The notes beneath the pieces were generated by a model. That model had not been told where the DNA came from, did not search any database, and saw only the letters and a list, made by a program, of their open reading frames with translations. DNA of 64,000 bases from a virus. Positions 27,520-52,427 of the stretch are shown here, one piece after another; positions within the stretch are counted from its first letter, which is position 1; every line of letters begins with the position of its first letter. The DNA is taken from the IMG/VR virus record IMGVR_UViG_3300028920_000048, one strand, 5' to 3'. Both the position numbers and the translations under genes were made by a program.

Positions 27520-27879
27520 CTACTCGTCTTCGGCTGTCACTCTGTTCTTGATATACCAATCCAACTGCTTGCTCAGTGAAAGGTCTTTCTGTCCGTGGTC
27601 ATAGCGGAAGCTCTTGAGCTGGGAACCATCCCTGAACGTCACAAGTATATCACACTTGTCATAGCCCAAGTCTGGCTTGGGATACTTGTTGACCGCCTTC
27701 TCAAGTGCGGCGACAGTGGTGAACTTCTTACCAGCGAGGTCTGGCAAACCGCCTCTAATCGGTCCCTCTGCGAAGGTTATCTCAATCGACTTCAAATCCT
27801 TCAGCAGCTTCTTCGGGTCAGCCGCAAGCACTGCCCTTGCCATCGTCAGCAACCTTCTTGCAACTCTCAATCTGTCCAC
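27520..27879 (-). CDS. Leader-tagged small protein (putative head cargo)
   Basis: GTG start after AGGAG gives MDRLRVARRLLTMARAVLAA. Confidence 0.75.
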   Translation of the reverse strand: MDRLRVARRLLTMARAVLAADPKKLLKDLKSIEITFAEGPIRGGLPDLAGKKFTTVAALEKAVNKYPKPDLGYDKCDILVTFRDGSQLKSFRYDHGQKDLSLSKQLDWYIKNRVTAEDE

Positions 27880-27912
27880 CGGTAATCTCCTCACGTGTAT
27901 TCATACGCCTTC

Positions 27913-28539
27913 CTAAGAAATTGTCATTTTCACGTTGCCAAAATCTTTAGAAAGCATACGAACAGCAGCATCGCCAAACTTTTTGGCAGCATTCTTATCT
28001 TCAAAACTGTAAGAAAACTCATGATAATCTGGGGAAAATTGCATTCTCATCCCTCCCTGCTTCTTACCACCGGCTTTCTTCGCCAGATTATCCAGTTTGT
28101 TCTCCACATCATCTATACCATCATCATCTGAGGAGCGCCAACTTAATGTCACAACGAAAAAGTGTTGACTCAACACCGTCCTTGCTATCGCAAGTAACTT
28201 AGAAGCCAACTGCCGTTTTGACGCTTGACGAAATGTGGAAACTCTAACTCCCTTGATCATTGGCTTCAGCTTTTTGAGCAACATCTCAGAAGCCTCATAC
28301 TCAATGAGAGGCCAAACCTTGTTGTCGATCATTGCAGCAACACTCTTCAGGTCAACTTGCTTGGCATCGTCATCACCAGAAACCCAATCAACCCCAAACA
28401 CCTTTATGGCGTCCGCAATGTCCTGCGATCTGCGAAGCTGTAAGCCTACCAAGTTCGTCCAATCCTCAAAGGACATAGCCGCCCCCAAAACAACCCTCGC
28501 CATTCCAACAAGTTCCTTAGCAGTTCTCAATCTGTCCAC
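27913..28539 (-). CDS. Leader-tagged two-domain protein (putative head cargo)
   Basis: N-terminal MDRLRTAKELVGMARVVLGA and internal RQLASKLLAIARTVLS. Confidence 0.75.
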   Translation of the reverse strand: MDRLRTAKELVGMARVVLGAAMSFEDWTNLVGLQLRRSQDIADAIKVFGVDWVSGDDDAKQVDLKSVAAMIDNKVWPLIEYEASEMLLKKLKPMIKGVRVSTFRQASKRQLASKLLAIARTVLSQHFFVVTLSWRSSDDDGIDDVENKLDNLAKKAGGKKQGGMRMQFSPDYHEFSYSFEDKNAAKKFGDAAVRMLSKDFGNVKMTIS

Positions 28540-28550
28540 CGGTACTCTCC

Positions 28551-29429
28551 TCACGTGTATTTGACAAGCTCAAAAACAGCATAAGTCGCCGTCGCAGGAA
28601 CAATACTGCCTCCATCACGAATGGCGTCTTCCTTCGAGTCGATCCGAAGATCAGCACACTCCATCGTCGATCCCGCCAAGCTCACCACAAGACTGGCAAC
28701 CGTATCCGGGATCGAAAACGCGCCCTGAAGCGGAACACGGTCGTAGTTGAATGACACAGTCATCGGTCCAACAGCCAAATACCCAGGCTCCTGAACAGTA
28801 GAGTTCGCCTCGCAGAGGAAAAACTTAACCACCTCCTGAGAGAACTCAAGGCTCCAAGAAATGATACCATCCAGAACACCGTCTGCATCGACAGTTGTCC
28901 GCCAGTATGGAATCGGAACCGTATCAGACGAACAATTCAAAGCCTCAATGATCCCGCCAGTATCCAAAGCAGTCTTGAAGCCATCAACCTGACCGAGAAC
29001 GTTATTGAGATAGCAGTCACCAATCTCAAACGTGCCAACATCGAGCGCCGCGAATGCTAGACTGCAAGTCGTTGAACCACCCTCAGCAGCCGCCAAGCTG
29101 ATGCTGCTCCAAAAGCAGTTCTGATAAACCTGACTTGACGTGTACCGAGGATAAACCTCAACCTTCTTGGCGGTCTGACGGTCTAATATCCAAGGACCGA
29201 TTACTCCGGTCCAAAAATCAACGTTCAAATCAACCTCGACTGAGCCATCAAGCGTGGGCCAATCATAAACCCGAGACGATCTGACCCCGATCTCGTCGAC
29301 CGGGGTCTTGATCTGACCGCCATAACCAGCCGCAGATTCAATGGGCATCTCTTGATTTGGCACACTAGCCGAATTGCAGAGACACACATTGTCGTCAACT
29401 TCGACATAGCCCTCGTATCCGAGAGGCAT
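28551..29429 (-). CDS. Tail tube-like protein (paralogue 2)
   Basis: LGYEGY N-terminus, PIPYWRT and ISWSLEFSQEV...PGYLAVG. Confidence 0.6.
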   Translation of the reverse strand: MPLGYEGYVEVDDNVCLCNSASVPNQEMPIESAAGYGGQIKTPVDEIGVRSSRVYDWPTLDGSVEVDLNVDFWTGVIGPWILDRQTAKKVEVYPRYTSSQVYQNCFWSSISLAAAEGGSTTCSLAFAALDVGTFEIGDCYLNNVLGQVDGFKTALDTGGIIEALNCSSDTVPIPYWRTTVDADGVLDGIISWSLEFSQEVVKFFLCEANSTVQEPGYLAVGPMTVSFNYDRVPLQGAFSIPDTVASLVVSLAGSTMECADLRIDSKEDAIRDGGSIVPATATYAVFELVKYT

Positions 29430-29444
29430 AAGCGAACCTCAATG

Positions 29445-30602
29445 TTACGGACAAGCAGGCAACGTGCATGTTCCACCGGGAGCACCTGGAGTCGGCAAAG
29501 CACCAGAGTCATCCGACATGATGATCGGCGGCAACACGTTTCCACCAGTCGGGATACGACCGCCCATGCCTTTCAAAGTAAAAGCACGGTTCGTCACATC
29601 CGACTGCCCCTTCAGGCCGTAATCATCACCCTCAACCACAACAGCGGGCATTTCGATGTACACCGTGCTCAGACCAGCCCGTGTAATCGCAACACGAAAC
29701 ACGTCATCACACGCATACAGATACGGAGCAGAAAGCGTGTAACTACCACTTCCATCACCGGTAATCGGGTCATAAACACCCTCTTCGTGATAGAACGTGG
29801 CGTTACCACTTCCGTCAATGGCACCCTGAAGCACCGCCGTTGGCTCACGGTAACCATTACAGGTGTAAAGAACCACGGTGTTGTTGGCAATACTGACGCT
29901 CCACTCAACCGTCTCAATGTCAGTCTGAAACGGTGTATTAGGCGTCGTGAATGGCGTATAACCAGCACCAACCGCACCAATGTAGAGATTCGAGTTCGTG
30001 CGCCAATACGGAATCGGGTCGATATCGTTATTGGAGCAGTTCAACGGGTTTGTGGCCGCAAACGCAGTCGTACTTCCAGCCGTCCCGTGAACACCTGTAA
30101 CCTGCCGAATATAACTGTATTCGCAGTAATCTGGCGGATCATTGTCATCCGGGTCGCTCTCTTCACGTGTCAAAGCAACCACATTGATCGAACAAGTGAC
30201 AAACGATCCCTCACTCGTTGACATGTCCACACTTTGACAGAAGCAACCCGTCTTCAGAATGTTCTTCACCGTTGAACAGTCTCGGGTGTACTTATACACG
30301 TGCGCACCGTCAGGCGAGATAATCAGCGATTTCGGATAAGCCCGCTGACTGATCCCCCATTCCTCAACAACGTTCCAGAGCTTCGCACTACCCTGAAGAT
30401 CGAAGTCAATTGACCCCTCGTACCGAATAGCGTTGTTGGCATAGTGCGACGACGAACCAGCATTATACCAGCCTGCACCCCAAACCGAGTTGTTGTAAAT
30501 TGGCTCCAGAACAAGGTTGACAGACGCACCTGTAGCCAAAAACAGCGCCGTCGAGCCATCATTGGCGTAAAACTGCGCATAGCCTTGGTAACCCATGCCC
30601 AT
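29445..30602 (-). CDS. Major tail tube-like protein (paralogue 1)
   Basis: MGYQGY, PIPYWRT, EWSVSIANN...NG...P; Thr/Gly/Ser-rich beta composition; preceded by the candidate late promoter. Confidence 0.65.
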   Translation of the reverse strand: MGMGYQGYAQFYANDGSTALFLATGASVNLVLEPIYNNSVWGAGWYNAGSSSHYANNAIRYEGSIDFDLQGSAKLWNVVEEWGISQRAYPKSLIISPDGAHVYKYTRDCSTVKNILKTGCFCQSVDMSTSEGSFVTCSINVVALTREESDPDDNDPPDYCEYSYIRQVTGVHGTAGSTTAFAATNPLNCSNNDIDPIPYWRTNSNLYIGAVGAGYTPFTTPNTPFQTDIETVEWSVSIANNTVVLYTCNGYREPTAVLQGAIDGSGNATFYHEEGVYDPITGDGSGSYTLSAPYLYACDDVFRVAITRAGLSTVYIEMPAVVVEGDDYGLKGQSDVTNRAFTLKGMGGRIPTGGNVLPPIIMSDDSGALPTPGAPGGTCTLPACP

Positions 30603-30673
30603 CGGGACAATCCTCCTCTCACGAGAAATTCCAGCACGTCAGGGACGTAAGACGCCTCTATCTGTCAATCCCC

Positions 30674-30685
30674 ATATAAAAAAAA
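30674..30685 (-). promoter_or_regulatory. Candidate phage late-promoter motif (TTTTTTTTATAT)
   Basis: Variant of the T-rich TTTT(C)TTATA motif also seen at 43195, 53184 and 59091, each at an operon start. Confidence 0.4.
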
Positions 30686-30704
30686 TGTTCACTTCCAATC
30701 GAGA

Positions 30705-31247
30705 CTAACCAGGGTACCCTTCGTCCTCTTCAGAGTACAACTCAGGGTTTTCATCCAAATACCACTGGACATCATCATAAACAGCCTGTTCAATCGAGTC
30801 AGGGTCAAGCATCTTCAGGTCCATAATTCGCCCCTTCACCGGAACCGTGGTCTCTCCACCATAACCACCATAAACTGTGAAGGTACCCTTGTAATCCACC
30901 CGCGAGGCCAAACCACGTGGACCTTTGCCCTTCCGAACGATCCGGTATTCAATGCCTTCCACCTGCCCCGATCCAAAGCCTTGCCAGTCGGCAGACTCCC
31001 TGTGAGCCCACAATCCCGGAAAGCTCTTGGCTTGACCTGTCGGGACAAGATAGACAAAAGCCTCTACATGGCGTTTGTCCGGCTTACCCTTGTAGCCCTT
31101 CTTATCGAGAAGCGCCATCAAAAGTTCCTGCTTCTTGTCACCAAGCCACAGCTTAAACCGAGTGTAGCCCTTCGGCGTCCTCTCGCCAGTTCCTAAAACT
31201 TCCTTAGCAAGCCCTACCAATCTCTTCGCAAGCAGCAAACGATCCAT
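30705..31247 (-). CDS. Leader-tagged protein (putative head cargo)
   Basis: MDRLLLAKRLVGLAKEVLGT after AGGAG RBS. Confidence 0.7.
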   Translation of the reverse strand: MDRLLLAKRLVGLAKEVLGTGERTPKGYTRFKLWLGDKKQELLMALLDKKGYKGKPDKRHVEAFVYLVPTGQAKSFPGLWAHRESADWQGFGSGQVEGIEYRIVRKGKGPRGLASRVDYKGTFTVYGGYGGETTVPVKGRIMDLKMLDPDSIEQAVYDDVQWYLDENPELYSEEDEGYPG

Positions 31248-31261
31248 TTTCCAATCTCCTG

Positions 31262-32074
31262 TCATGTAACGCTAATGTCACGCTCTTTCTTGTTCCGAAC
31301 CGTTACGCGGTCTCCAACCGTGCCTTGGTCTCCGTTGAACACAGCACCTGTCACGTCGAGAAACCTGTCTGTCGCAGTCCCTACGTCAATCGAATCGCCC
31401 ACCACACTACCAGCCGGAACCGTGACAGCTATCGTCGTCGGTGAGTCATTCAAGTCCTTCACGCCAAGCAAGATATCAAGGTCTGCCGCCATGCCCGGTC
31501 CAATACCACCAACTACTTCGACCACAACACGCAACTGAGTTGCTGCAAAGTTCGACCCGCTCGCAAGATTGGTTTGAGCACCAGTGCCGTAATTGATGCC
31601 ATCCGTGAAGTCCAAGATCGGTCCAGCCAACACTTCCAGCGTGGCAAAAGTATCGTCACCCTCCGAAAACACATCAACAGCCAACATCCACTGACTGTTC
31701 TTAGCACACCAAAATACTTGATTGAAGTGATCGCTGACCCGCTCGTCCTTGACCAACAAATACTCGTCCCAGCCTCCGGTAAAGCCAACCCGAGCAAAAT
31801 GAGCGTCCATTGCACGAAGCACGTTCTGAAGATCAACAAATCCAGCCCGAAAAATCGTATTCAGGACAAAATCGTTGTCGGCGATCTCCGCCGGATTGAC
31901 CAACGGTATCTCAACGTCAGGATCGTCCGTCGCCGTTACAGACTCGAAGTAGAGCGTTCCAGCGTTGCCAGCACCGGTCAGATTGATGCTCTCAAAAGCA
32001 GTGCGAATCTGATCGTACTGATAGGCGATTCTGTCGGCAATCGCAAGAAGTGTGGCTGTGTCAATGATCGGCAT
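31262..32074 (-). CDS. Putative virion structural protein
   Basis: 270 aa, acidic and beta-rich, between tail-completion and tube genes. Confidence 0.55.
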   Translation of the reverse strand: MPIIDTATLLAIADRIAYQYDQIRTAFESINLTGAGNAGTLYFESVTATDDPDVEIPLVNPAEIADNDFVLNTIFRAGFVDLQNVLRAMDAHFARVGFTGGWDEYLLVKDERVSDHFNQVFWCAKNSQWMLAVDVFSEGDDTFATLEVLAGPILDFTDGINYGTGAQTNLASGSNFAATQLRVVVEVVGGIGPGMAADLDILLGVKDLNDSPTTIAVTVPAGSVVGDSIDVGTATDRFLDVTGAVFNGDQGTVGDRVTVRNKKERDISVT

Positions 32075-32376
32075 TACTTCAAATATCTCCGGTAGAACTT
32101 GTCCATCTGTTTTGCTATTTCGTTAAGAGCCTTTATCGAAAGCACAACCCTACCCCTGATCTCCTCAGTGTTGTCAACAACCGAATCTTGAAAACCTTCC
32201 TCGAACAAAGGAGCACCACCAAGCGACCGAATTCTCGCCCGCATTAAAGCATGATGACGGGCAAGCATTGTCAGTTTCGCCATGACTGGAATAGCTCTAA
32301 ACGTTTTCAACAAGTTGTTCACGGAACTTCTCAGCGCCATGAGACAATACCTCCAAATCAGCCCGCCAAAGCGCAA
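32074..32376 (-). CDS. Small hypothetical protein (start uncertain, possibly 32283)
   Basis: Fills the gap; its stop overlaps the next start. Confidence 0.4.
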   Translation of the reverse strand: MRFGGLIWRYCLMALRSSVNNLLKTFRAIPVMAKLTMLARHHALMRARIRSLGGAPLFEEGFQDSVVDNTEEIRGRVVLSIKALNEIAKQMDKFYRRYLK

Positions 32377-33106: not shown

Positions 33107-33115
33107 TTTTCGACC

Positions 33116-34699
33116 TCACAGTGCCTCAAGCATCTCTTCAATGTCGCCAATCGAGAACTCCACCACATCATCACCTTCCTCAAATTTCGTTTCCGCCACA
33201 AACACTCTGCTGCTCTTTCGACGACCCCTCGACTTGGTCTTCTTTTTCGGTGCTCTAGCAAGCGTCTTAATAAAGTCAACCGGATCGAACCGGACCACGA
33301 CCGACTTGCCATCCTGAGCAAAGATGTCCTCCAAGCTCCTATCAAGCTTGCCACCACTATTAAGATACTCCATGATCACAAGCGGATTGATGTAGCTCCC
33401 AATGGTTGTATCAATCGACTCATGGCTCATAACACTACTCGTGGCTTCTGCCGCCTTCGTCATGTGATCAACAATGATCTCAACAGCCTTCTGCTTCATC
33501 TGCTCAGTCGCCTCAGCCTTCAAATCGCCAAGTTGAGACAACAAGTCAGCCTTCAGCCGATTCACATCTTTCTTCAGGGCGTCATACATCTTCCTTGTTG
33601 CCCGAAGTTTGCGAAAGTCGCTGACCTCGACAAATTGTTTGAGCACCTTCTTGAAGTAGGCGTTCAAAGCGTCATGACTGATCCCCTTGCCAGACTTGGT
33701 GACAAAAATCGGGGCATCTGAAGACTGACCGGACAAGCCCTTGGCGTGCTCTGAAAGCGCATTCACGATATCCTTGTCCTTCAAGTCCGCCACGTTCACC
33801 GTACCCCACTTGCCAGTAAACTCAAGACGAACAAAGCTCTTCCTCACGAACTTGACATGCTTCTTAAGCAAGGTCAAAGCACCATAAGTCTGCAACTCTT
33901 TACCACCCTTAGTCTTAGCCTTTGTCTTGCCCTCTCCCCACTTGCCGCCACGAATGCCCGTCTGCGCCACAACAAGCGCCACAAGAGCCATAAGCCTCTT
34001 ACGCTCGTTTCCGCCGGTAAGATCAGCTTTCAACTTGGTAACCAAATCCTTCCAGTTCTGAATAAGCACTCCAAGTTGATGGGCTTTTTCCTGAGCTGTC
34101 TTTCCTTTGTTCCCGAAAACCTCGATCATACGGAGCAAACGACCATCCGGCGCTACTTCAGCCCCAAAAGTATTAGGAAACAACTTGAACACGTCCGGCA
34201 CATACCCCGACTCGTAAAGCTGAGTACGAGCTTCTTGTACCATATTTTCACGCACCTTCTTTTCCGCAGCACGCCGGATCGTCGCCTCGCCCTTCAACGG
34301 ATCAACATCAACACGCTTACCCTTGGAGTACGTCCAACCAAAAGCATTGTTCATTATCGCATTCTCGACGGTCCTCTTCTGCATCTCAGTCGTCGCATCG
34401 ACAAATTTGCTGATCTTCTTACTGCTTCGAGCCCGCTTCAAGAACTCAGCCCGAATCGCAAGCTCATTGCCCCTGACCTTGTTCTTGAACTTCGACAGCA
34501 CACTGGAAGCCAGACGACCAGCCGATCCGGTTGGTCCAACAAGCAACTTAAAAGCACTCATAGCTTCTTCACCAGTCGAAGCCATAGCCTGCTGCTGTTC
34601 CTGCCACTCACGCTCGTACTGAGCAACCTCATCGCTCTTGCGAGTTGCACAAACAAGACGATCTACAATGGCGGCACAATCTTGCATCTCAGTCTCCAT
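33116..34699 (-). CDS. Type IB DNA topoisomerase (catalytic core) with long helical N-terminus
   Basis: Catalytic R-K-R-H-Y set in order: TGIRGG, FTGKWG, SDFRKLRAT, MSHES, GSYINP. Confidence 0.8.
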   Translation of the reverse strand: METEMQDCAAIVDRLVCATRKSDEVAQYEREWQEQQQAMASTGEEAMSAFKLLVGPTGSAGRLASSVLSKFKNKVRGNELAIRAEFLKRARSSKKISKFVDATTEMQKRTVENAIMNNAFGWTYSKGKRVDVDPLKGEATIRRAAEKKVRENMVQEARTQLYESGYVPDVFKLFPNTFGAEVAPDGRLLRMIEVFGNKGKTAQEKAHQLGVLIQNWKDLVTKLKADLTGGNERKRLMALVALVVAQTGIRGGKWGEGKTKAKTKGGKELQTYGALTLLKKHVKFVRKSFVRLEFTGKWGTVNVADLKDKDIVNALSEHAKGLSGQSSDAPIFVTKSGKGISHDALNAYFKKVLKQFVEVSDFRKLRATRKMYDALKKDVNRLKADLLSQLGDLKAEATEQMKQKAVEIIVDHMTKAAEATSSVMSHESIDTTIGSYINPLVIMEYLNSGGKLDRSLEDIFAQDGKSVVVRFDPVDFIKTLARAPKKKTKSRGRRKSSRVFVAETKFEEGDDVVEFSIGDIEEMLEAL

Positions 34700-34794: not shown

Positions 34795-36276
34795 TCAAGC
34801 TGGAACAATCTCGCCACGCCCAGTCAACTTACCCGGAAAAATCAACTGAAACGTACCTTGATCCGTCTGGCGCACAATCGAGCCATCAACCGTGAAAACG
34901 TACCGATCAACCATTGGTCCGGCAATATCAGCACTCTTCTTTGAAGACGTAAAGAACTTTCCGGTCGGTATCCTTTCGCCGCCACGCCAAGCCTCATATT
35001 CATCATCGCTCATCCAACGATAGAGCTTTAATTTCTCTTCGCCAGCCTTTTGAGGCAATTTACCGCTTCTCATATACTCCACAAGATTGAAATAAGTCTC
35101 TTGCTTACTCCCCTCAGGAAAGAAATCCGGGTCTCCGACATCAAGCACGTCATCGACAACGAAATTGGAGCCCCGAGCAAACACCGTAAAGCCAGGAGCC
35201 ATAGAGCCTTTGCCCACCACGACATAAAACGTCGGATTTTTCATGGTATTTACAATGTCAATAGCCTCTCGATCCGGTCCTTTAACCTCAATCACGACAG
35301 TCTCAGAAGTACCCGTAGCCTTACAAAAGCGTCCTACCCGACTCAAAAGTTGCTTCAGAGCCTTCTTGATAAACTTCAACACAGCCTTGTCAAGCGTCTG
35401 CTTGGTCTTGACAAGCTCCGCATCAACATCCTTGATTGGTGTTGTTTTGTCGGAAATGAACCGCCCAATGTCAACAACCAGCATCGAAGACATCGAAACC
35501 AGATATCTTTCTCCAGCCTTGTACCGCTTGCTGTATTCTTTGAAGAGCTTGTTGCTGTCCTTAGCAATCCTTTTGAGCTTCGATACGTCATCGCCAGCCT
35601 TAGCAACTGCCGTCGCAATGGCAGTCAAATCAGTCTCGACTTGATCAGCAACATCGTCCGGCATCGGATCGTACCCCTTCTTCTCCGAAGCGATCTCCTT
35701 GCGAAGCTTCGCCCTGAAACCAGACAAGTCAAACGACCCACGACCACGCTCCTGACTCCTGAACAGCGAATATTCGTAACTGGAGAGCCTTTCCTCAAGA
35801 GCCGCTTCAACATCCGACATGTCGACCACGAACTTGCAGTCGCCGGTCACAATCCGTGAAGCACAACGAACCGGACCAAAAACTCCCGCTCCCTTAGTGA
35901 CCCTCACGATCACCTGCGAGACCGGAGTCCCTTTCACAAGGCGAAGCTTCATGCACATTCCAAAGCTCCTCTGAACCGAACTGGACCAATCGGAAAGGAC
36001 CGAAAGCACGTCACGAACGTCATGGTTATCAGCGTCCACAACGACCACAACCGACCCAAGCCTATCTGACATACCCGTTGACCTTGCTAGCTCAACACGA
36101 AGCCCATCAAGGCGTCCAATCTCCAACCTGATCGCCTTAATAATCTCCTTTTGGACATCACTCATGTCCATAGGCGGCTGTTTCGACACGTAACCCACAA
36201 GCAGTGACCTTGCAGCAACGAGGAGTCCTCTTGCGGCTGTCAAACGACCTCTGCATCTTTTGGCATATCGTGTCAT
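34795..36276 (-). CDS. Leader-tagged multidomain protein; C-terminus possibly ADP-ribosyltransferase-like
   Basis: GRLTAARGLLVAARSLLVG leader variant; C-terminal KLYRWMS...KFFTSS. Confidence 0.65.
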   Translation of the reverse strand: MTRYAKRCRGRLTAARGLLVAARSLLVGYVSKQPPMDMSDVQKEIIKAIRLEIGRLDGLRVELARSTGMSDRLGSVVVVVDADNHDVRDVLSVLSDWSSSVQRSFGMCMKLRLVKGTPVSQVIVRVTKGAGVFGPVRCASRIVTGDCKFVVDMSDVEAALEERLSSYEYSLFRSQERGRGSFDLSGFRAKLRKEIASEKKGYDPMPDDVADQVETDLTAIATAVAKAGDDVSKLKRIAKDSNKLFKEYSKRYKAGERYLVSMSSMLVVDIGRFISDKTTPIKDVDAELVKTKQTLDKAVLKFIKKALKQLLSRVGRFCKATGTSETVVIEVKGPDREAIDIVNTMKNPTFYVVVGKGSMAPGFTVFARGSNFVVDDVLDVGDPDFFPEGSKQETYFNLVEYMRSGKLPQKAGEEKLKLYRWMSDDEYEAWRGGERIPTGKFFTSSKKSADIAGPMVDRYVFTVDGSIVRQTDQGTFQLIFPGKLTGRGEIVPA

Positions 36277-36287: not shown

Positions 36288-37271
36288 TCAGAACGTTACC
36301 ACAGCCTTGAATCCCTTAGCCCGAAAAATTATGTCCTTGCCCACTGGACGCTCGAAGGTGGAATTGATCTTGACCGTCTTTCCTACAAGTTTCTTGTCGA
36401 GCTTCTCAGCGGGTGAATAGTCCAACGACTCGCCAGGCTTCATTTTCACAAGTGACTCAACAATGTCGTGGTTGAGAAGAATATAAGCCCTCTGCTTGTA
36501 GCCCTTCGGCTGTCCAATCAGGGCAATCCTCGGATTCGCCACAATCGTCCAATTGTACTTAATAAACATTACCTTGACCGGCAATACCATCTTCACCTTC
36601 TCGCCCTCGGGGAAGTCATCGGCTTTGGCAACACCCTTCAGACGCTTGGCTTCATCCAGCATCTTCGTCCATGCGTTGTCGCTGATCTTGAAGCCTTCCT
36701 TCAATTGGTTAACAAATTTGCCCCAAAAGTCATGTCCATCAAGCTGCTTGATCACAAGAGAGACAGCCGACTTGTTCTTTGTAAACCACGCCTGGTCTTG
36801 CCGCTTGACCTCGGTCATGCGCTTTGCTTCTGATTCCGTAACGGACTTGTCCCTCGTAAACGTGGTCTCCGCCCTGTCCGGCTTGCCGTCCTTGAACTTG
36901 ATCTTGAACTCCAAGGCGACACCGTAAGGATCAATCCAGTAACCGTAGCCGTACACCGTCCGACGCCTTCCCATTCCAGCCACGCCGACATGGACAACCG
37001 CAGCCTTCAGGTCCGGCACAGACGGCTTGACCGAATTGGCAAGCTTCTCGTAGACAGTGCCCTTCTCGGAATCGAGATTGCGACCAGACGCCAAAGCCTT
37101 GAGGATGAAAGCGCCTTGCTTGTCAGACTTCCAAACCCCGTTGTTGGACTTGACCATAGACCGGAGCGACGGGAAGTAGTCGTTGGCACTGTCACGATAG
37201 ACCATCACAGACGCCGTGACAAGCTCACGAGCCATCTTGACAAGCTCTTCTGCAACTCTCAGTCTGTCCAT
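36288..37271 (-). CDS. Leader-tagged protein (putative head cargo)
   Basis: MDRLRVAEELVKMARELVTA. Confidence 0.8.
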   Translation of the reverse strand: MDRLRVAEELVKMARELVTASVMVYRDSANDYFPSLRSMVKSNNGVWKSDKQGAFILKALASGRNLDSEKGTVYEKLANSVKPSVPDLKAAVVHVGVAGMGRRRTVYGYGYWIDPYGVALEFKIKFKDGKPDRAETTFTRDKSVTESEAKRMTEVKRQDQAWFTKNKSAVSLVIKQLDGHDFWGKFVNQLKEGFKISDNAWTKMLDEAKRLKGVAKADDFPEGEKVKMVLPVKVMFIKYNWTIVANPRIALIGQPKGYKQRAYILLNHDIVESLVKMKPGESLDYSPAEKLDKKLVGKTVKINSTFERPVGKDIIFRAKGFKAVVTF

Positions 37272-37275: not shown

Positions 37276-37584
37276 TCACTCCCATTCAGTGTATTTGCCC
37301 ATCTCGTCCTCTTTCGTGACTTTCTTGGGCTTGTGGTCGTAAGTCATATTCAAAGGTGCTGAACTGCCATCCTCAAGGAAAACACGACCAGAAGAAAGCC
37401 GGTCGCTCTGCGACACGCTCTCTACTACGCCGCTATGGAGACCCTTGCCCGGAGTCCAGCCCCATATCCACACCTTCTCTCCAACCTTGGGCTTCTTGCC
37501 GTTGTCCTCGAAAGTTCCCTTACTGGCTCCAACCAAGTCACGAGCCATCTTGACAAGCTCTTCTGCAACCCTCAGTCGATCCAT
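37276..37584 (-). CDS. Leader-tagged small protein (SH3/KOW-like beta domain)
   Basis: MDRLRVAEELVKMARDLVGA followed by KPKVGEKVWIWG...SGVVESV. Confidence 0.8.
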   Translation of the reverse strand: MDRLRVAEELVKMARDLVGASKGTFEDNGKKPKVGEKVWIWGWTPGKGLHSGVVESVSQSDRLSSGRVFLEDGSSAPLNMTYDHKPKKVTKEDEMGKYTEWE

Positions 37585-39222: not shown

Positions 39223-39735
39223 TCAGTCCGTTTCGTTCTTTCCAGCATCCCAACCCTTGTCGATTTCATTGAAGAACTCTTTCTTCTTTTCTTCCGACAA
39301 GTCAGCCGGACTGTCAACGCCGTACTTCGCCAAAACACCCTCAAAATACTCACGATACTGCTTTTGTTTCTTACTCAACTTGGCAACGACACGCTTGGCG
39401 ACACGCCCAGCAATCCGATCAAAGCGTGAAGCCTGCTTGAAGATATTATCAAACTTCCTCTGCGTGCTCGGATCGGTCGGGATATATTCTTCGCCCCGAA
39501 GCTGCTTCAAAAGTCCAATAACCCGTGGCAACGCTTCCTTCTTGATAAGTCGACGAGGAATGGACTGCACCTGAAAACGCAACTCGTCACGGTCATCCAT
39601 CGACAAGTTCTTCGGATAGCCTTTAGCTTTCTTCAGCAACTCAATGATCTTGTCAACAGCCATCGTGGCAAGACGAAGCTCCCTTGCCATAAGCACCATA
39701 CTACCAAAGATTTCCTTCGCAATCCTACTAGCCAT
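39223..39735 (-). CDS. Two-domain small protein with leader variant
   Basis: MASRIAKEIFGSMVLMARELRLA; C-terminal YREYFEGVLAKYGVDSPADLSEEKKKEFFNEID. Confidence 0.65.
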   Translation of the reverse strand: MASRIAKEIFGSMVLMARELRLATMAVDKIIELLKKAKGYPKNLSMDDRDELRFQVQSIPRRLIKKEALPRVIGLLKQLRGEEYIPTDPSTQRKFDNIFKQASRFDRIAGRVAKRVVAKLSKKQKQYREYFEGVLAKYGVDSPADLSEEKKKEFFNEIDKGWDAGKNETD

Positions 39736-40521: not shown

Positions 40522-40815
40522 TCAAGAGCCAAGCGGAACACTCAGCCGTAACTCCCTGCCAACGTCCTCGACCTCCATGCCCCCATAATCACGAACACCG
40601 GCACGCTGAAGCAAACCCTCAGCAGCCGTCAAAACTTTGCCGGTATCCTTGCCCTTGCCCTTGTACTTGAAGACAGCGTAGTACTGATTGGAGTCGCCAG
40701 ACAGATAGTCAAAGTTGCGCTTCAAGATGGTCTTTAACTGCTCAACGTCAGCCTTGGTAGCCAAAACCATCTTCGCAAGCCTTACAAGCTTTCCAGCAAG
40801 CCGAATACGATCCAT
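40522..40815 (-). CDS. Leader-tagged small protein
   Basis: MDRIRLAGKLVRLAKMVLAT. Confidence 0.75.
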   Translation of the reverse strand: MDRIRLAGKLVRLAKMVLATKADVEQLKTILKRNFDYLSGDSNQYYAVFKYKGKGKDTGKVLTAAEGLLQRAGVRDYGGMEVEDVGRELRLSVPLGS

Positions 40816-42701: not shown

Positions 42702-43073
42702 TCATATCAAGTTCCCCAAATCACCATACCGACGATTGCCAGTCGCAGCAATCAAAGTATCAACTTGAGCAGCCTCGGCATCGGTGAGAGGTATCTTCTT
42801 CAAGTCACGAGCGATTACACCCAAATTTTTCACGTCAACATACGTAGGTTCAATATCAGGATCACTCGGGGCACTTTTGAACGGATAAATACTGTTTTGA
42901 ATGAACCTCGTCTGAAGCCACGGACGAGTTCCCGTCTTGGTGGACTCATCCCAAAAGAACTTAATGAAGGACTCCACGATAGCCAACTCAGCAGCCGAGG
43001 GCAAATTGATCCTCATTGTCCGAGCAATCACCCACACCCAACGTGAATATTGCCAAACATCAGCAGAAGACAT
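42702..43073 (-). CDS. Small protein, paralogue of 62537-62896 (possible minor capsid protein)
   Basis: Shares WxYxRWV and VDTLIAATGNRRYGD. Confidence 0.75.
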   Translation of the reverse strand: MSSADVWQYSRWVWVIARTMRINLPSAAELAIVESFIKFFWDESTKTGTRPWLQTRFIQNSIYPFKSAPSDPDIEPTYVDVKNLGVIARDLKKIPLTDAEAAQVDTLIAATGNRRYGDLGNLI

Positions 43074-43832: not shown

Positions 43833-43853
43833 CCTTTTCTGTCTCCAAAAAAA

Positions 43854-45680: not shown

Positions 45681-45681
45681 G

Positions 45682-46364: not shown

Positions 46365-46378
46365 GTGATTGTCGAGTA

Positions 46379-46471: not shown

Positions 46472-46478
46472 GTGAATG

Positions 46479-46571: not shown

Positions 46572-46579
46572 GCTCTCAT

Positions 46580-46882
46580 CTAATCCCTCTTGGGAACAAG
46601 ATCAAACCGACGTGACTTGAACTCTTCCAGTCGGATTTCCGGGCTGCTGGCGATCTCGAAAAGAGGAAACACGACCTTCTTTGGTTTCGGAATGAACACG
46701 AAATTATACGGATAGACAACCTTGTTCAACTCACGCCACAACCGTCCACACCTACGGACCCAATAATCACGTTCAGCCCGGTCTCTTGGAAGCAACACAC
46801 GAAGCGCCATTCCCAAAACCGACACACGTCTACCAAACCAAAGGATCATGTCTTTCTCTGCTTCAATGAAGTATATGTTCAT
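46580..46882 (-). CDS. Small protein carrying a 31-aa copy of a major capsid protein segment
   Basis: KPKKVVFPLFEIASSPEIRLEEFKSRRFDLV versus MCP KPKRVQFPLFEIASNPEIQLTEIKSRRFDLV; ATGA-coupled to the upstream gene. Confidence 0.75.
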   Translation of the reverse strand: MNIYFIEAEKDMILWFGRRVSVLGMALRVLLPRDRAERDYWVRRCGRLWRELNKVVYPYNFVFIPKPKKVVFPLFEIASSPEIRLEEFKSRRFDLVPKRD

Positions 46883-47376
46883 CTCTCCAAAACGTGCCAC
46901 GTCCAGCACTGCTCTCCGACATGCTCCGAACCTTCAATCCGAAAGCCATGTCTTAGGAACAACCTGATCGAGGCTTGGTTCATCGCCCAAATCCTCGCCA
47001 CGTGTGAACCCGGATACATCGCCAGTGCGAAGCTAAGCAACAAACTCCCGAAACCTTTACCCTGCTTGCCCTTGAAGACCGTAATGCCGGTGATGTAGTT
47101 AAACTTCCTTCGACCGAAAATCGACAGAAAACGCTTCAAAATATCAGCATCGTCCGTCTCCTCCATCGCCCGAAAAGCGGGCATCTTCATCCTCAAAACC
47201 TGAACATTCCCAATCCAGCAGTCGTCAGCCCCGACAAGAAGCCAACTATGAACACCCTCGTTGTATAACCGAAGATAAGAAGCTTCCGAAAACTGAGAAT
47301 GAGGCGGGTAACACTCCTTGTCTTGCTTCGACAAACGAGCCCAGTCGGAATCATTGTCCATCAGTGCGAAACGCAT
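46879..47376 (-). CDS. GNAT-family acetyltransferase
   Basis: ITVFKGKQGKGFGSLLL (motif A) and NQASIRLFLRHGF (motif B). Confidence 0.85.
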   Translation of the reverse strand: MRFALMDNDSDWARLSKQDKECYPPHSQFSEASYLRLYNEGVHSWLLVGADDCWIGNVQVLRMKMPAFRAMEETDDADILKRFLSIFGRRKFNYITGITVFKGKQGKGFGSLLLSFALAMYPGSHVARIWAMNQASIRLFLRHGFRIEGSEHVGEQCWTWHVLER

Positions 47377-47773: not shown

Positions 47774-48318
47774 CAGGCTCGACTCCTCTTCTCCTTGTCT
47801 GTGAAGACACCCTCGCCGTGCATTCGTGTCAAGGCGATCTCATTTACCATCTGAAGTGCTTCAGTGCAACGATCTCCAAGGAAACGTGTGCCCTGAAGGT
47901 ACTTAAACAGTTCAAACATTTTTTCCCTGTTTTTGTCAGTTGCGACATCCTTCAAGACAGCCCGACACAGCCCAACCCGAATGATCTCAAGCAGGTTCTG
48001 GTGGACCTTTCGAGCCAGTTCATCCTTCGTCAAGCCCATGCACCAAACCTCGTCCATGCGCTTGTTTACGTACCACGGGCTGGTCTCAACGTTGTCAATG
48101 TCTATGAAGTGAATCTCGTCACTAATGTTGCGACGACGATGTACGTGCACCTGAACACGCCCGATGGGCAGAAGCGGCTCAACAACGTGGTACCGGAACG
48201 GGTCGCCCTCTTCATGGCGGCTCGGATGGTGCTGAGGACGGAGCCCAGCGACTTCCAACTCGCAGATCAAAACCGGCACAAACTCCTCAACGGTAAAACT
48301 CGTTTCACTCTTCTCCAT
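47770..48318 (-). CDS. Hypothetical protein
   Basis: Start moved to ATG 48318 (GGAGG RBS) to avoid overlap with tRNA-Pro. Confidence 0.55.
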   Translation of the reverse strand: MEKSETSFTVEEFVPVLICELEVAGLRPQHHPSRHEEGDPFRYHVVEPLLPIGRVQVHVHRRRNISDEIHFIDIDNVETSPWYVNKRMDEVWCMGLTKDELARKVHQNLLEIIRVGLCRAVLKDVATDKNREKMFELFKYLQGTRFLGDRCTEALQMVNEIALTRMHGEGVFTDKEKRSRAC

Positions 48319-48348
48319 TGTGCATTCCTCCATTTTTTGGTGAAAAGA

Positions 48349-48427
48349 TGATCGGAGTGAGAGGATTTGAACCTCCGATCCCTCGGCCCCCAGCCGAGTG
48401 CCCTGAACCAGACTAGGCCACACTCCG
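48349..48427 (-). tRNA. tRNA-Pro(GGG); 3' end reads A-TCA instead of A-CCA
   Basis: CGGAGTG/CACTCCG acceptor; CTCGG-CT-GGG-GG-CCGAG. Confidence 0.85.
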
Positions 48428-48433
48428 ATCCTT

Positions 48434-49048
48434 TCACAACTCATAGCCATAGAAACGAGCCCCACGCTGAAGCTCGGTCCACAGCACAGCATCGACCGCA
48501 TCACGGACGATCTCCTTGGTCACTTCGTACTTGGGTCTCCGAGTGTTCCGATCTATCGGCACAGCCGCAAACGCCTTCTGAATCGCATCGTCGCTTGCAT
48601 TACAACCAAAGACCTCCAAGATTCGAGGCAGCACTTTACCGATATCCTCGATCCTGTAAAAGAAAGACGAGCAACCAGAAGCAATCCTGTTCCAGTAGAC
48701 CCAGTAAAGCGTTCCAGCCACAACCAGCTCATCCCGAGTCTCAAGTCTGCCCGGAAGAGGCAACTGAAACCGCTTCCTGAGCACTCTATCTATGAACGCC
48801 CAACTCTCGGGTATCGCAGTCGTCATGGACTGGATCACGACTACAGGCTCACGAACTTGATGAAGCACCACGCCGAAGCGGTCAAACGGTCTTGCAGGAG
48901 CTTCGTACCATGAAACCTTGCCGTCGCCGCCCATACGAATCTCGTGCGGCATATCCAGCCCAATATGACAAAGCACATCCGAGATATATCGTGTCCCGCT
49001 CCTGCCACAACCTGTAATGAGGACTCTTGGCATGTTCCATTCTCGCAA
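48434..49048 (-). CDS. Sulfotransferase-like protein
   Basis: LITGCGRSGTRY (5'-PSB) and HQVREPVVVIQS (3'-PB); likely start ATG 49033. Confidence 0.7.
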   Translation of the reverse strand: MREWNMPRVLITGCGRSGTRYISDVLCHIGLDMPHEIRMGGDGKVSWYEAPARPFDRFGVVLHQVREPVVVIQSMTTAIPESWAFIDRVLRKRFQLPLPGRLETRDELVVAGTLYWVYWNRIASGCSSFFYRIEDIGKVLPRILEVFGCNASDDAIQKAFAAVPIDRNTRRPKYEVTKEIVRDAVDAVLWTELQRGARFYGYEL

Positions 49049-49049
49049 C

Positions 49050-49124
49050 TGGTGGACCCGACAGGACTCGAACCTGTAACCAACGGTTTATGAGACCGCC
49101 GCTCCGCCATTGAGCTACGGGTCC
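49050..49124 (-). tRNA. tRNA with CAT anticodon (probably Ile2, possibly elongator Met)
   Basis: GCGGT-CT-CAT-AA-ACCGT; acceptor GGACCCG has C4 and C5 as in TilS substrates; ACCA end. Confidence 0.85.
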
Positions 49125-49167
49125 GAGAAAAGATCACCAATCTAAGCCCATTATACTTCCGTCTTCA

Positions 49168-49740
49168 CTACCTTACATTGAAAACGGCAACCCCGTCCTG
49201 AAAGTCCTTCAGGTTGTATTTGGGGCTGTACTTCCCACGAAGGTAGTTCAGAAGGCTCTGCACCCTTTCGTCGTCGGGTGCCTTGAAGAACTGATCTGCC
49301 GGAGAGACGGCAAGCTTGGCGCTTGTCACGAACCGAGAACCCTTGTACTTGCCCAGCTTCAGCGACAGCTTGACCTTGAATCCCTTCTCCTCAAGGTCTT
49401 TGATAAGCATGTTCGCCAGCTTCTCGCCAGCTTGTTTCTCGGTCTTCTCCTTGAACTTCTTGGCTTGCTCGCGGACTTGCTGAAACGCACTCTCGAACAA
49501 CGACGCCCCCGCCGTTCGAGGTGCTCCAATCAAAAGTTTCGATGCTTCAAGCAATCCACGAGCAATGATCAGTTTCTCCACGGTCATTCTCCTATCAACC
49601 TGTCGTGAATGCTCCACGGGGACAAGCCCTGTGGCTTCTAGGTTGTCGCTTTCGCTCCAACCAAAGACTGCATTCCCAGTCTCAATACGTTCCTTGCGGC
49701 ATTCATCCACGAAGACGAGCCCCATAGTTTTCTGCGGCAC
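49168..49740 (-). CDS. Leader-tagged protein (probable start GTG 49581)
   Basis: AGGAG + 7 nt + GTG gives MEKLIIARGLLEASKLLIGAPRTA. Confidence 0.65.
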   Translation of the reverse strand: MPQKTMGLVFVDECRKERIETGNAVFGWSESDNLEATGLVPVEHSRQVDRRMTVEKLIIARGLLEASKLLIGAPRTAGASLFESAFQQVREQAKKFKEKTEKQAGEKLANMLIKDLEEKGFKVKLSLKLGKYKGSRFVTSAKLAVSPADQFFKAPDDERVQSLLNYLRGKYSPKYNLKDFQDGVAVFNVR

Positions 49741-49772
49741 ACATCATAACAGGTCTGGATATAGGAGAAAAA

Positions 49773-49907
49773 TGGCTTGCCCTGTCTGGACTCGAACCAG
49801 AACTTCCGGCATCGTATGCGCCAGCAGAATAGCCCATGCCCTTGGGTTGTAAACCGCCACGCACCCAATGTGGCGTCCGACGTGCTACCACTTACACCAC
49901 AAAGCAA
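49773..49907 (-). ncRNA. tRNA-like RNA (135 nt) with ~58 extra nt in the anticodon arm
   Basis: Intact D arm (GTGT-AAGTGGTA-GCAC), T arm (TCTGG-TTCGAGT-CCAGA), 8-bp acceptor TTGCTTTG/CAGGGCAA, G discriminator and CCA. Confidence 0.75.
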
Positions 49908-49914
49908 ATAGTCT

Positions 49915-49991
49915 TGGCTGGCCCGGCAGGACTCGAACCTGCAACCTCCTGATCCAGAGTCAGGCGTTCCGCCAAATTGAACTACGGACCA
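49915..49991 (-). tRNA. tRNA-Gln(CTG)
   Basis: T1-A72, CCTGA-CT-CTG-GA-TCAGG, GCCA end. Confidence 0.92.
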
Positions 49992-49995
49992 GTAG

Positions 49996-50069
49996 TGGCT
50001 GGCCCGTCAGGACTTGAACCTGAAATAGAAGGTCCAAAACCTCCTGTGTTGCCATTACACTACGAGCCA
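49996..50069 (-). tRNA. tRNA-Gln(TTG)
   Basis: GGAGG-TT-TTG-GA-CCTTC, GCCA end. Confidence 0.92.
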
Positions 50070-50111
50070 GTACGCTACGGTCAGTCTATTCGGTTATCAA
50101 TGAGCGCAAAT

Positions 50112-50186
50112 TGGGGTGACCAGCGGGAATCGAACCCGCATACCTCGGGCCACAGCCGAATGCCCTACCCTTGAGCGATGATCACC
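50112..50186 (-). tRNA. tRNA-His(GTG) with encoded G-1
   Basis: TTCGG-CT-GTG-GC-CCGAG; G-1:C73; CCA. Confidence 0.92.
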
Positions 50187-50195
50187 ACTCAAATT

Positions 50196-50272
50196 TGGTC
50201 TGGCTGGGCAGATTTGAACTGCCAATCCCGGCGTCCCGAACGCCGTGCCTTACCAAGTTAGGCCACAGCCAG
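50196..50272 (-). tRNA. tRNA-Pro(CGG)
   Basis: CGGCG-TT-CGG-GA-CGCCG; C1-G72, A73, CCA. Confidence 0.92.
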
Positions 50273-50346
50273 TTACACTTCTTTCAATTTCCACCACGCT
50301 TCTGCTGCATCTGAACTCACCGAAACAACTTACGTCCGCATGTTTT

Positions 50347-50388
50347 CTATGTGGGACTGTTTGTCAAACAAAAAACAGTCCCACATAG
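50347..50388. repeat. Perfect 16-bp inverted repeat (10-nt loop) between tRNA genes
   Basis: CTATGTGGGACTGTTT / AAACAGTCCCACATAG. Confidence 0.9.
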
Positions 50389-50406
50389 CGAACATCTCTA
50401 TCAAAA

Positions 50407-50483
50407 TGGTCGGAGTGACAGGATTTGAACCTGCGACCCTCTGCTCCCAGGGCAGATGCGCTACCAGACTGCGCTACACTCCG
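50407..50483 (-). tRNA. tRNA-Pro(TGG) with C33
   Basis: TCTGC-CC-TGG-GA-GCAGA; CGGAGTG acceptor; ACCA. Confidence 0.88.
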
Positions 50484-50491
50484 AGAATTTT

Positions 50492-50568
50492 TGGCGGGAT
50501 CGACGGGACTTGAACCCGCAAACATCCGCCTCGACAGGGCGGCGCTCTGCCAATTGAACTACGATCCC
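50492..50568 (-). tRNA. tRNA-Asp(GTC)
   Basis: CCGCC-CT-GTC-GA-GGCGG; GCCA end. Confidence 0.92.
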
Positions 50569-50611
50569 ACTTCACACTCATATATCAAAAAGCGTCGATT
50601 TTTCAAAAAAC

Positions 50612-50812
50612 AAAAAAAGCCCGTAACCGGCTAGCGGCTTCGGACTCTTATGTCGCTTGGCGTCCTTCGAGTTTGCTGTCAGACACCGTGGACCGAGACC
50701 ACGCCGCAGCCGGAACTATCCGGCTGGCAATCCGACGATGGACTCGATTGTGGTGATATCCTGACAGCGTTCATTCTCGTTGACTCCTCAACCTTGGGTT
50801 TTCATCCTACAC
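50612..50812 (-). ncRNA. Unassigned ~200-nt structured RNA with its own promoter and terminator
   Basis: Long-range helix GCTGTCAG/CTGACAGC, hairpin CAGCCGGA-TAGT-TCCGGCTG, and terminal GTCCG...CGGGC plus T7 terminator (50612-50645). Confidence 0.65.
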
Positions 50813-50817
50813 ACTGT

Positions 50818-50846
50818 ATTCTACACGATCACGGAGATTCTGTCAA
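50818..50846 (-). promoter_or_regulatory. Sigma70-type promoter
   Basis: TTGACA - 17 bp - TAGAAT. Confidence 0.85.
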
Positions 50847-50895
50847 GTCTTTTTTTGAATCAAGCTTCTTTTTCTTCCTGCACTTGCCAATCGCC

Positions 50896-51060
50896 CTATT
50901 TATAAGCTGTTAGTCGCAGAAAACCACGGGGCTCGTCCCCGTGGTAATTGACGACTTCAATAGCCTTACGGTCCTCTTCCTGGTATATTTTTGCAATCGG
51001 GCTCATAATAATGCGCCTCTCGTCGAATTCTTCCAGATCAGGAACATCAGACTTTTTCAC
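50896..51060 (-). CDS. Small hypothetical protein (54 aa)
   Basis: AAGGAG RBS and GTG start directly after the upstream stop. Confidence 0.5.
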   Translation of the reverse strand: MKKSDVPDLEEFDERRIIMSPIAKIYQEEDRKAIEVVNYHGDEPRGFLRLTAYK

Positions 51061-51061
51061 G

Positions 51062-52177
51062 CTATGACTCCTTTCGTTTTCCTGACGGCAAAGCCAAGCC
51101 ACCTCTATGACCAACAACGTAATATTCTCGCATTGGATTAACCACCCAATGATCATCTTGATCTTGTTGAACCCACCCAGCCGATGGAGCCGATGGTACT
51201 TGTCCAGGACGAAGAAGACGCCAAGACCCGCCACCTGCCTTATCACTAACATAAATACTACAACCAGCAGCCCACAACTTCGAGGCCCTCACTCTAAGCA
51301 ACGGACGATCCCCTACTGGCAAATCATGACCACGCTCGTCCGCCCAAAACCTTCCTCCAGGAACCGGACCCTTTACTATTCTCTTACGTCCCTTCGGCAC
51401 ACCCGGATAACGAACAAGCCAAAAATCCCCGGCCATTCTCTCTGTTCCCAAAACCAAAAACTTAGCAACTTTAAGCAACCGTCTCGCCAGTCTGACATTG
51501 CCGTCAAACACTTGACAAGCATCAAAAGCCTGAACAAAACCATACCGAACATCCATACGTTTTTTGAGGGCAACACCTTCTGGAGTCATCATTCCCCACT
51601 GAACATTAGCCTTACCATACTCGTCATAAAGTTTCTTCATCAAGGCTTCGCCAATGCCTATACGACGATAGTTTTTGTTAACGAAGATATAGTTGACATG
51701 AATCTTGCCATCAAACTCGGAGTATTCCACGTAACCAAGCACTTTCCTGTCCGCTGCACTTGTCGCAGTCATGCAAAGATCAGTCTGCCCGTGATGCGAG
51801 CCCGTCACCTCTTCGTTGAACACCGGAATTGGTTGACTTTCAACACTAGGCATGAACTTTTTCAAGGCGTTTACAACAGTTTGATCAGCTTTCCCATGCG
51901 GACGATGCTTCCCAATCATCGGACGACCACCCTTCCACGCTGCAATACCATTTCCGCCCATCCAAAGACCGTCCAACGTTTTCCCGTCCGTATAGAGCTT
52001 CTTACTCTCGGCTCGCTTGCCGCCCAAAAACGCCTCAAGCACCTTCTTATCGCCCTTTGTCAACCGCACAAAAGCTTTCCTATCCTCTAAAAACCTCAGA
52101 ACAAACTTCAATTGCCTCAGCAACGCCATCCAAAGGCTCATCATGTTCAAGAGCCAACCGACGCAAAATCCAATCAC
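51062..52177 (-). CDS. Multidomain protein with a GNAT acetyltransferase domain and an internal leader motif (start probably GTG 52069)
   Basis: VNYIFVNKNYRRIGIGEALM (GNAT motif A); NVRLARRLLKVAKFLVLGT between domains. Confidence 0.75.
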   Translation of the reverse strand: MIGFCVGWLLNMMSLWMALLRQLKFVLRFLEDRKAFVRLTKGDKKVLEAFLGGKRAESKKLYTDGKTLDGLWMGGNGIAAWKGGRPMIGKHRPHGKADQTVVNALKKFMPSVESQPIPVFNEEVTGSHHGQTDLCMTATSAADRKVLGYVEYSEFDGKIHVNYIFVNKNYRRIGIGEALMKKLYDEYGKANVQWGMMTPEGVALKKRMDVRYGFVQAFDACQVFDGNVRLARRLLKVAKFLVLGTERMAGDFWLVRYPGVPKGRKRIVKGPVPGGRFWADERGHDLPVGDRPLLRVRASKLWAAGCSIYVSDKAGGGSWRLLRPGQVPSAPSAGWVQQDQDDHWVVNPMREYYVVGHRGGLALPSGKRKES

Positions 52178-52427
52178 CAGTGCCCGGTCTATAAACGAGA
52201 ACCACAGAGGTATCCGACTCGTATTTATCTCCGATCAGCCACTCCTCTGGTTGCTTCTTTTTCGGCTTGGCTTTGAGATGAACAACAGAAACCCTACCGC
52301 CGTCAAGACCGACAAGTTCGGCTTCGACCTTCAAAGCCCGAAGCACCTTATCAACATCTGAAGGCGTGTCATCAACCAAATCCTTCGCAACGAATAGAAG
52401 AGCCCTTGCAGCCCAAATACGATCCAT
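52080..52427 (-). CDS. Leader-tagged small protein
   Basis: MDRIWAARALLFVAKDLV. Confidence 0.7.
   Translation of the reverse strand: MDRIWAARALLFVAKDLVDDTPSDVDKVLRALKVEAELVGLDGGRVSVVHLKAKPKKKQPEEWLIGDKYESDTSVVLVYRPGTGDWILRRLALEHDEPLDGVAEAIEVCSEVFRG

Follow-up and report, generated by a model that had tools for sequence, protein, structure and literature searches.

In phage T4, the capsid-targeting sequence (CTS) is carried by the internal proteins IPII and IPIII, and also by IPI and Alt (Mullaney and Black 1996, as reviewed in PMC9958956), and by itself allows foreign proteins to be loaded into the scaffolding core (PMC9958956). The 80alpha scaffolding protein and CpmB of SaPI1 share a C-terminal ‘helix-and-hook’ that binds the N-arm of an HK97-fold capsid protein (PMC5644958), and in encapsulins short terminal cargo-loading peptides dock diverse cargo inside an HK97-fold shell (PMC8346489). 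Here we describe an 18-residue helical tag found on otherwise unrelated proteins encoded in a 64,000-nucleotide stretch of DNA from an uncultivated huge phage (IMG/VR record IMGVR_UViG_3300028920_000048); this whole stretch is referred to below as the window. The tag is real, modular, independent of position in the protein and under selection at the protein level, and it is encoded mostly in head and tail modules; no description of the helix was found in the literature. The reading that we favour, and to which we assign about an even chance, is that the tag would act as a position-independent docking helix bringing scaffold and cargo into the prohead, as a functional analogue of the T4 CTS.

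A first-pass annotation of the window had proposed a common leader on unrelated proteins. Run as a regular expression over all six frames of the window, its consensus returned exactly eight matches, all on the coding (minus) strand, which carries every gene of interest, and all at the starts of open reading frames (ORFs), at positions 27876, 28536, 31244, 37268, 37581, 40812, 49578 and 52424. A seed hidden Markov model (HMM) built from these eight leaders scored them at 20-28 bits, against about 4 bits for the best match elsewhere in other frames or on the other strand. All eight genes have an ATG or GTG start (GTG at 27879, 28539 and 49581) and a GGAG-type ribosome-binding site 6-9 nucleotides upstream, and the leaders are therefore true N-termini. 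The 18-residue consensus is M-D-R-[LI]-x-x-A-x-x-L-[LV]-x-[LM]-A-[KR]-x-[LV]-[LV]-small. The window carries the D-R-L-R-V-A subtype. BLASTP among the tagged proteins gave cross-matches only between the leaders of 36288-37271 and 37276-37584, so a common leader on unrelated proteins is borne out. These two leaders are near-identical at the DNA level too, and in this pair alone the leader of 37276-37584 looks, from its sequence, like a recent duplicate. The tagged genes of the window, with its weaker and degenerate copies, are as follows.

27520-27879 (minus strand), tagged gene, 119 residues, GTG start; tag at 27823-27879; weak LPD25 match only
27913-28539 (minus strand), tagged gene, 208 residues, GTG start; N-terminal tag at 28483-28539 and a second tag-like helix at 28165-28218
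30705-31247 (minus strand), tagged gene, 180 residues, directly downstream of tail-tube-like genes
34795-36276 (minus strand), gene of 493 residues; probable tag at residues 10-28 (36193-36249) after a 9-residue extension
36288-37271 (minus strand), tagged gene, 327 residues; tag helix at residues 3-18, then a linker, an alpha/beta domain and an OB fold
37276-37584 (minus strand), tagged gene, 102 residues; leader near-identical to that of 36288-37271
39223-39735 (minus strand), gene of 170 residues with a degenerate, interrupted tag
40522-40815 (minus strand), tagged gene, 97 residues
49168-49581 (minus strand), tagged gene, 137 residues, GTG start, within the tRNA array; divergent tag
51062-52177 (minus strand), GNAT acetyltransferase ORF; internal tag at residues 227-244 (51446-51499)
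52080-52427 (minus strand), tagged gene, 115 residues

Besides these eight, the window has three weaker copies, all of them listed in the first pass: one lies near an N-terminus and two are internal. The copy near the start of 34795-36276 scores 8.8 bits with the seed HMM, and every core position fits by eye. The internal copy of the GNAT ORF scores 10.7 bits and is followed by about 125 residues; a start codon or ribosome-binding site ahead of it was looked for and is absent, so this copy is truly internal. The internal copy of 27913-28539 is weak by sequence (9.1 bits), though a single-sequence AlphaFold model places a tag-like helix at residues 108-124, directly before a confident ferredoxin-like domain and thus at the domain boundary that had been claimed. 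The internal copies are fusions of tag-plus-domain modules and might, as had been suggested, mark polyproteins. Of two further variants that had been suggested, the one at 63664 found no support; the one at 39735 is degenerate and scores only 1 bit, although the C-terminal domain of its protein has a canonically tagged homologue in G001, a 253-kb relative.

The tag extends well beyond the window. About 65 IMG/VR contigs, the largest of 253 kb, encode a major capsid protein (MCP) 85-90% identical to that of the window. When the HMM was iterated over the MCP-flanking loci of these relatives, matches of at least 10 bits numbered 104 on the coding strand versus 3 on the opposite strand, and matches of at least 15 bits numbered 90 versus 0. 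HMM searching of the window and its relatives thus reveals a clade-wide tag. Among 88 distinct copies, 54 lie directly after the initiator Met and 16 at the extreme C-terminus. The remaining 18 are in neither class: a GTG start probably precedes several, and some are genuinely internal and lie in long ORFs made up of repeated tag-plus-domain modules. Orthologues of 49168-49581 in relatives have tags that are canonical or decayed, and relatives with MCPs 65-70% identical have only faint, shorter variants. Many relatives (for example, L011:3246-4955, L035:4391-4918 and L040:3280-3801) also have a conserved module of about 30 residues after the tag (D-F-P-T-Q-D-A-x-D-K-Y-x-K-E-H-P-D-A-x-x-S-x-H-K-V), sometimes in two or three repeats per ORF, followed by lysine-rich low-complexity sequence; this module corresponds to no Pfam family and was not found in the window.

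Conservation of the tag lies in the peptide. Across tag copies, identity at codon positions 1, 2 and 3 is 0.47, 0.65 and 0.31, respectively, and pairs sharing a residue use the same codon only 30% of the time; because of these codon-position identities and the differing codons used for the same residue, we conclude that the tag peptide, and neither DNA nor RNA, is what selection acts on. The conserved positions (A6, L9/L10, A13, L16/L17 and a small residue at 18) have heptad-like spacing, and in the position profile of the 88 distinct copies alanines 6 and 13 are invariant or nearly so. The profile ends in L-[LVTI]-[AGS], the small residue at position 18 being the only regularity there. The leader had been described as an amphipathic helix; the helical periodicity holds up, but ‘amphipathic’ was an overstatement, as the hydrophobic moment of the tag is not above that of shuffled sequences. 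Given the heptad-like spacing together with this unremarkable moment, an alanine-cored packing helix seems a better description of the tag than a classical amphipathic helix.

A scaffold-like protein of the relatives carries the same helix. Most of the 16 C-terminal copies sit on SP1, a small (about 80-110 residues), charged, moderately acidic protein encoded between the protease and MCP genes, the canonical scaffold position. The tag helix forms the C-terminus of SP1, with 0-3 unconserved residues beyond it. Gene order in the relatives is protease, SP1, SP2, SP3, decoration protein and MCP, with tagged genes sometimes located between protease and SP1. That a scaffold-position protein should carry the helix is what would be expected of a prohead address, and judging from the sequences of the relatives this expectation is supported. 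The head module of the window encodes, in the direction of transcription, the protease, two very acidic scaffold-like proteins, a decoration-like protein and the MCP. The MCP gene is followed by genes for a methyltransferase and a transglutaminase-like protein, then by a 12-gene tRNA array and by neck and tail genes, which extend to about 12 kb. Four of the head genes bear on the tag.

59122-62511 (minus strand), prohead protease gene with two inteins inside; candidate processing enzyme
58306-59022 (minus strand), SP2 orthologue, an acidic scaffold-like protein
56928-58253 (minus strand), SP3, a hyper-acidic scaffold-like protein with a conserved N-domain that includes a tag-like helix at 57966-58028
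55444-56313 (minus strand), HK97-type MCP; candidate tag receptor

The window MCP is 68% identical to that of metagenomic phage LR745208 (485 kb), 47% to that of Tunturiibacter phage Tunturi_5, 37% to gp27 of Bacillus phage G and 27% to those of cluster C mycobacteriophages, and the prohead protease is 41% identical to Tunturi_5 gp331. The helix in the conserved N-domain of SP3 matches 7 of the 11 tag core positions; SP3 also includes 4-5 near-identical repeats in which acidic blocks alternate with a basic block, S-K-K-S-K-K-A-K-S-R-R-S. The protease C-terminus was considered as a further tag copy and rejected, being helical but out of register. The protease inteins occupy approximately residues 72-461 and 576-975, and each has Hint and LAGLIDADG domains, Cys as its first residue, and His-Asn at its end followed by Cys; the G001 orthologue (337 residues) is uninterrupted at both insertion points. 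Nearby, the DNA methyltransferase ORF 53209-55236 (minus strand) has a LAGLIDADG_2 homing-endonuclease domain in its N-terminal half (residues 143-304), and its G001 orthologue is collinear with it from end to end. The C-terminal part of ORF 46580-46909 (minus strand) matches the MCP region of G001 (65% identity over 37 residues), and two paralogues of about 120 residues each, 42702-43073 and 62537-62896 (minus strand), lie on either side of the head and neck region, with a single G001 counterpart at 207896-208189.

The proteins that carry the tag are nearly all ORFans: when 65 of them, taken from the window and its relatives, were compared with Pfam and annotated PHROGs, almost none had a match. 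Exceptions are DUF7007, MORN repeats, zinc ribbons and a rubrerythrin/EncFtn-like half-ferritin, and the other non-ORFan carriers are an OB-fold protein, a type IB topoisomerase, a CCA-adding enzyme and a GNAT protein. PHROGs and Pfam searches with the eight tagged window proteins found nothing except the LPD25 match, which is sub-threshold, and neither residues 1-40 of 37276-37584 nor 27913-28539 had any match but the query itself in searches of 5.8 billion proteins. The half-ferritin forms the rest of a tagged protein of 111 residues (L009:16885-17217, plus strand), with scores of 28.8 bits for Rubrerythrin and 24.3 bits for EncFtn-like, the latter under its cut-off; by analogy with encapsulins, this ferritin-like protein is apparently addressed to the HK97-type shell.

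An exhaustive HMMER search with the OB-fold protein 36288-37271 found 17 representative homologues. Its 5-6 closest homologues (26-36% identity) are all tagged, one of them after a 70-residue extension, and distant homologues are without the tag, one having the domain embedded in a protein of 1331 residues. Because only the closest members of this family are tagged, the tag is modular. An AlphaFold model built on the homologue alignment (mean predicted local distance difference test score, pLDDT, 84) consists of the tag helix, a low-confidence linker at residues 19-31, and a fold beginning at residue 32 with a new alpha/beta domain. The C-terminal domain (residues 218-327) is an OB fold, with Z scores of 5.7-7.5, a Foldseek probability of 0.99 and domain-sized alignments, and all of its top structural matches are nucleic-acid-binding OB proteins. 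On this fold assignment only, 36288-37271 is a candidate nucleic-acid-binding protein; an ESM Atlas search with it gave no usable neighbours. We note that this is the largest tagged protein, and that its family comprises 18 representative clusters with a conserved motif, S-L-R-S-L-V-K-x-N-N-G-L-W-K-S.

Tagged genes had been placed among head, neck and tail genes, and G001 agrees in part. All of its 19 tag matches are on the coding strand. Its head module, with the terminase at 83 kb and the portal at 87 kb, has tags at 85, 92.6, 95.5, 103.6 and 104.7 kb, and four more fall in its tail module at 210-213 kb, where their slots are syntenic to those of window tags 40815 and 37584/37271. The flanking tail genes are common to both genomes. 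Since only one of the eight tagged window proteins has a G001 homologue, these conserved slots hold non-homologous tagged genes. Two G001 enzymes have tag-like helices. The type IB topoisomerase (L088:4808-5782, equivalent to G001 84808-85782), encoded between terminase and portal, has one of 12.5 bits immediately ahead of its catalytic core; the window topoisomerase (33116-34699, minus strand) has a 197-residue N-terminal extension in which no tag is detectable. The CCA-adding tRNA nucleotidyltransferase (L087:4933-6612, equivalent to G001 64933-66612) has a tag-like helix in an N-terminal extension and belongs to a 9-kb island in which small ORFs are tagged, in some cases at the C-terminus.

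Docking in the prohead interior fits these observations best, because selection is at the protein level, position in the protein is tolerated, the helix is shared with a scaffold-position protein, the cargo is turnover-prone and the genes lie in morphogenesis modules. The alanine-centred hydrophobic stripe of the helix (A6, L9/L10, A13 and L16/L17) would provide the face that packs on a common receptor. The receptor may be the lining formed by the capsid protein or the acidic scaffold core, with the tag-like helix conserved in SP3 as a candidate, and any protein bearing the helix at its N-terminus, at its C-terminus or between domains would then co-assemble into the head. Cargo would use the same contact as the scaffold, as SP1 of the relatives has the same helix at its C-terminus. 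The predicted cargo is a fast-changing set of small proteins, together with a few that are enzyme-like or bind nucleic acid; presumably they are delivered along with the DNA or work within the head. Binding to the prohead, packaging, injection and any removal of the tag by the intein-bearing prohead protease are inferred.

A bolder version, which we regard as possible though somewhat short of an even chance, is that a clade of huge HK97-type phages uses one position-independent helical ‘zip code’, common to a scaffold protein and to dozens of enzymes and hypervariable proteins, to fill its capsids with programmable cargo. This would be encapsulin-like loading in a DNA-packaging virus, arisen independently of the T4 CTS, with a topoisomerase, a CCA-adding enzyme, OB-fold DNA binders and a half-ferritin among the cargo; if so, the helix is possibly transferable as an engineering handle. 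Were the tag a prohead address, the tagged genes would be the encapsidated or injected arsenal of an uncultivated huge-phage clade, readable from sequence, and no part of a phage faces the arms race with host defences more directly, while annotation of it by homology is nearly impossible. Capsid-targeting peptides would have evolved more than once, here via the contact helix of a scaffold protein, and a short, position-tolerant tag would be at hand with which foreign proteins could be loaded into very large capsids of the HK97 type. The tag may be one instance of a general way of addressing cargo to large-phage heads, largely undescribed and established by experiment only for T4.

Several results weigh against prohead docking. 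SP1 is missing from the window, and the protein that provides the scaffold link is thus absent from the phage in which the tag was recognised; the C-terminus of the window SP2 is only vaguely tag-like. Covariation between scaffold and cargo, which speaks for docking, is weak: the scaffold-position helix and cargo tags have an identity of 0.41 against 0.38 (permutation p=0.044). Tag identity is 0.51 within a genome versus 0.40 across genomes, also a point in favour, but this within-genome similarity could be explained by duplication or gene conversion. Neither a T4-like I/L-x-E cleavage site nor a conserved Glu follows the tag in the profile of the 88 distinct copies. No tag was found within 20-50 kb of the MCP in LR745208, phage G or Tunturi_5, nor in the first 50 kb of phage G, for which a multi-omics study reported many particle proteins and nothing on leaders (PMC12484599). 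About half of the G001 tag matches lie outside recognised head and tail modules, including the 9-kb island, at 59-68 kb, which adjoins RNA-repair-type genes, and three weak sites elsewhere, at 157 and 188-191 kb.

The explanation that best survives alongside prohead docking, although we consider it unlikely, draws on the same G001 distribution. The helix could be a docking or oligomerisation module of a non-capsid complex, such as an intracellular assembly, a replication body or a chaperone/adaptor, with the tagged proteins gathered in the infected cell and not packaged. A helix that occurs at the N-terminus, internally and at the C-terminus would suit such a module, and a heptad-like alanine core is typical of helix-helix packing. 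The island beside the CCA-adding enzyme and an RNA-binding protein, the sites far from structural genes, and the window tag inside the tRNA array are also consistent with it. Against a non-capsid complex, tags are enriched in modules for head and tail, a scaffold-position protein encoded directly between protease and MCP ends in the helix, and the slots among tail genes are syntenic.

Position in the window itself raises a different destination. Most tagged genes of the window are interleaved with tail-tube-like and neck genes (27-41 kb), as would be expected if the helix targeted another part of the virion, be it tail lumen, neck, baseplate or, for accessory or decoration proteins, the outside of the capsid. 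We regard this as improbable, for tagged genes of the relatives often lie between terminase, portal, protease and MCP, a scaffold-position protein is tagged there, and enzyme-like cargo is unlikely to be structural. More doubtful again is that the helix binds membrane or is a signal read by the host for localisation, secretion or degradation. It is indeed a short, basic, hydrophobic N-terminal helix with a net charge of 0 to +5, but its charged residues break any signal-peptide-like core, its hydrophobic moment does not exceed that of shuffled sequences, copies are also C-terminal and internal, and the near-invariant alanines 6 and 13 point to tight protein-protein packing. Conservation at the nucleic-acid level (an initiation region, regulatory RNA or recombination site), or as a passive remnant of duplication, is hardly credible: the 37271 and 37584 leaders are alike in DNA and tags within a genome are more alike than those across genomes, but third codon positions are near random and second positions the most conserved, the same residues are encoded by differing codons, copies that are internal or C-terminal cannot serve as initiation signals, and the tag persists over 10-15% MCP divergence while the cargo turns over completely.

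Among described systems, prohead docking by this helix would work like the T4 CTS. Both involve a short peptide on otherwise unrelated, fast-changing proteins encoded with head genes (non-essential ones in T4), a prohead protease gene is present in both, and hypervariable cargo in conserved slots is seen here too. N-terminal copies comprise the eight strong ones of the window and 54 distinct ones in relatives. The tag is nevertheless not a member of the T4 CTS family. As the first-pass annotation had held, it is different and longer: it has no sequence similarity to the CTS and is a helix of about 18 residues versus about 10 in T4. No I/L-x-E motif follows it, and it also occurs at C-termini, internally and on a scaffold-position protein. 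In place of a head built from gp23, gp22 and gp21 there is an HK97-type one, whose acidic scaffolds are separate and whose protease is a relative of Tunturi_5 gp331.

With 80alpha and CpmB the resemblance lies in the scaffold. The P22 scaffold has a C-terminal helix-turn-helix, and SP1 of the relatives, though not of the window, has its helix at the extreme C-terminus of a scaffold-position protein, as in 80alpha. Reuse of that helix by an unrelated second protein for the same site is the logic proposed here for SP1 and cargo. Differences are that the tag lacks a RIIK-type hook and any sequence similarity, and that it sits on dozens of proteins, mostly at the N-terminus, with SP1 absent from the window phage. 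Encapsulins differ in that the present system belongs to a DNA-packaging phage, the relatives encoding terminase and portal by the same head module and the window having tail genes, and in that the tag is a longer helix without resemblance to the encapsulin consensus peptides. They are alike in combining an HK97-type capsid protein with terminal tags, and one relative places its tag on a rubrerythrin/EncFtn-like half-ferritin.

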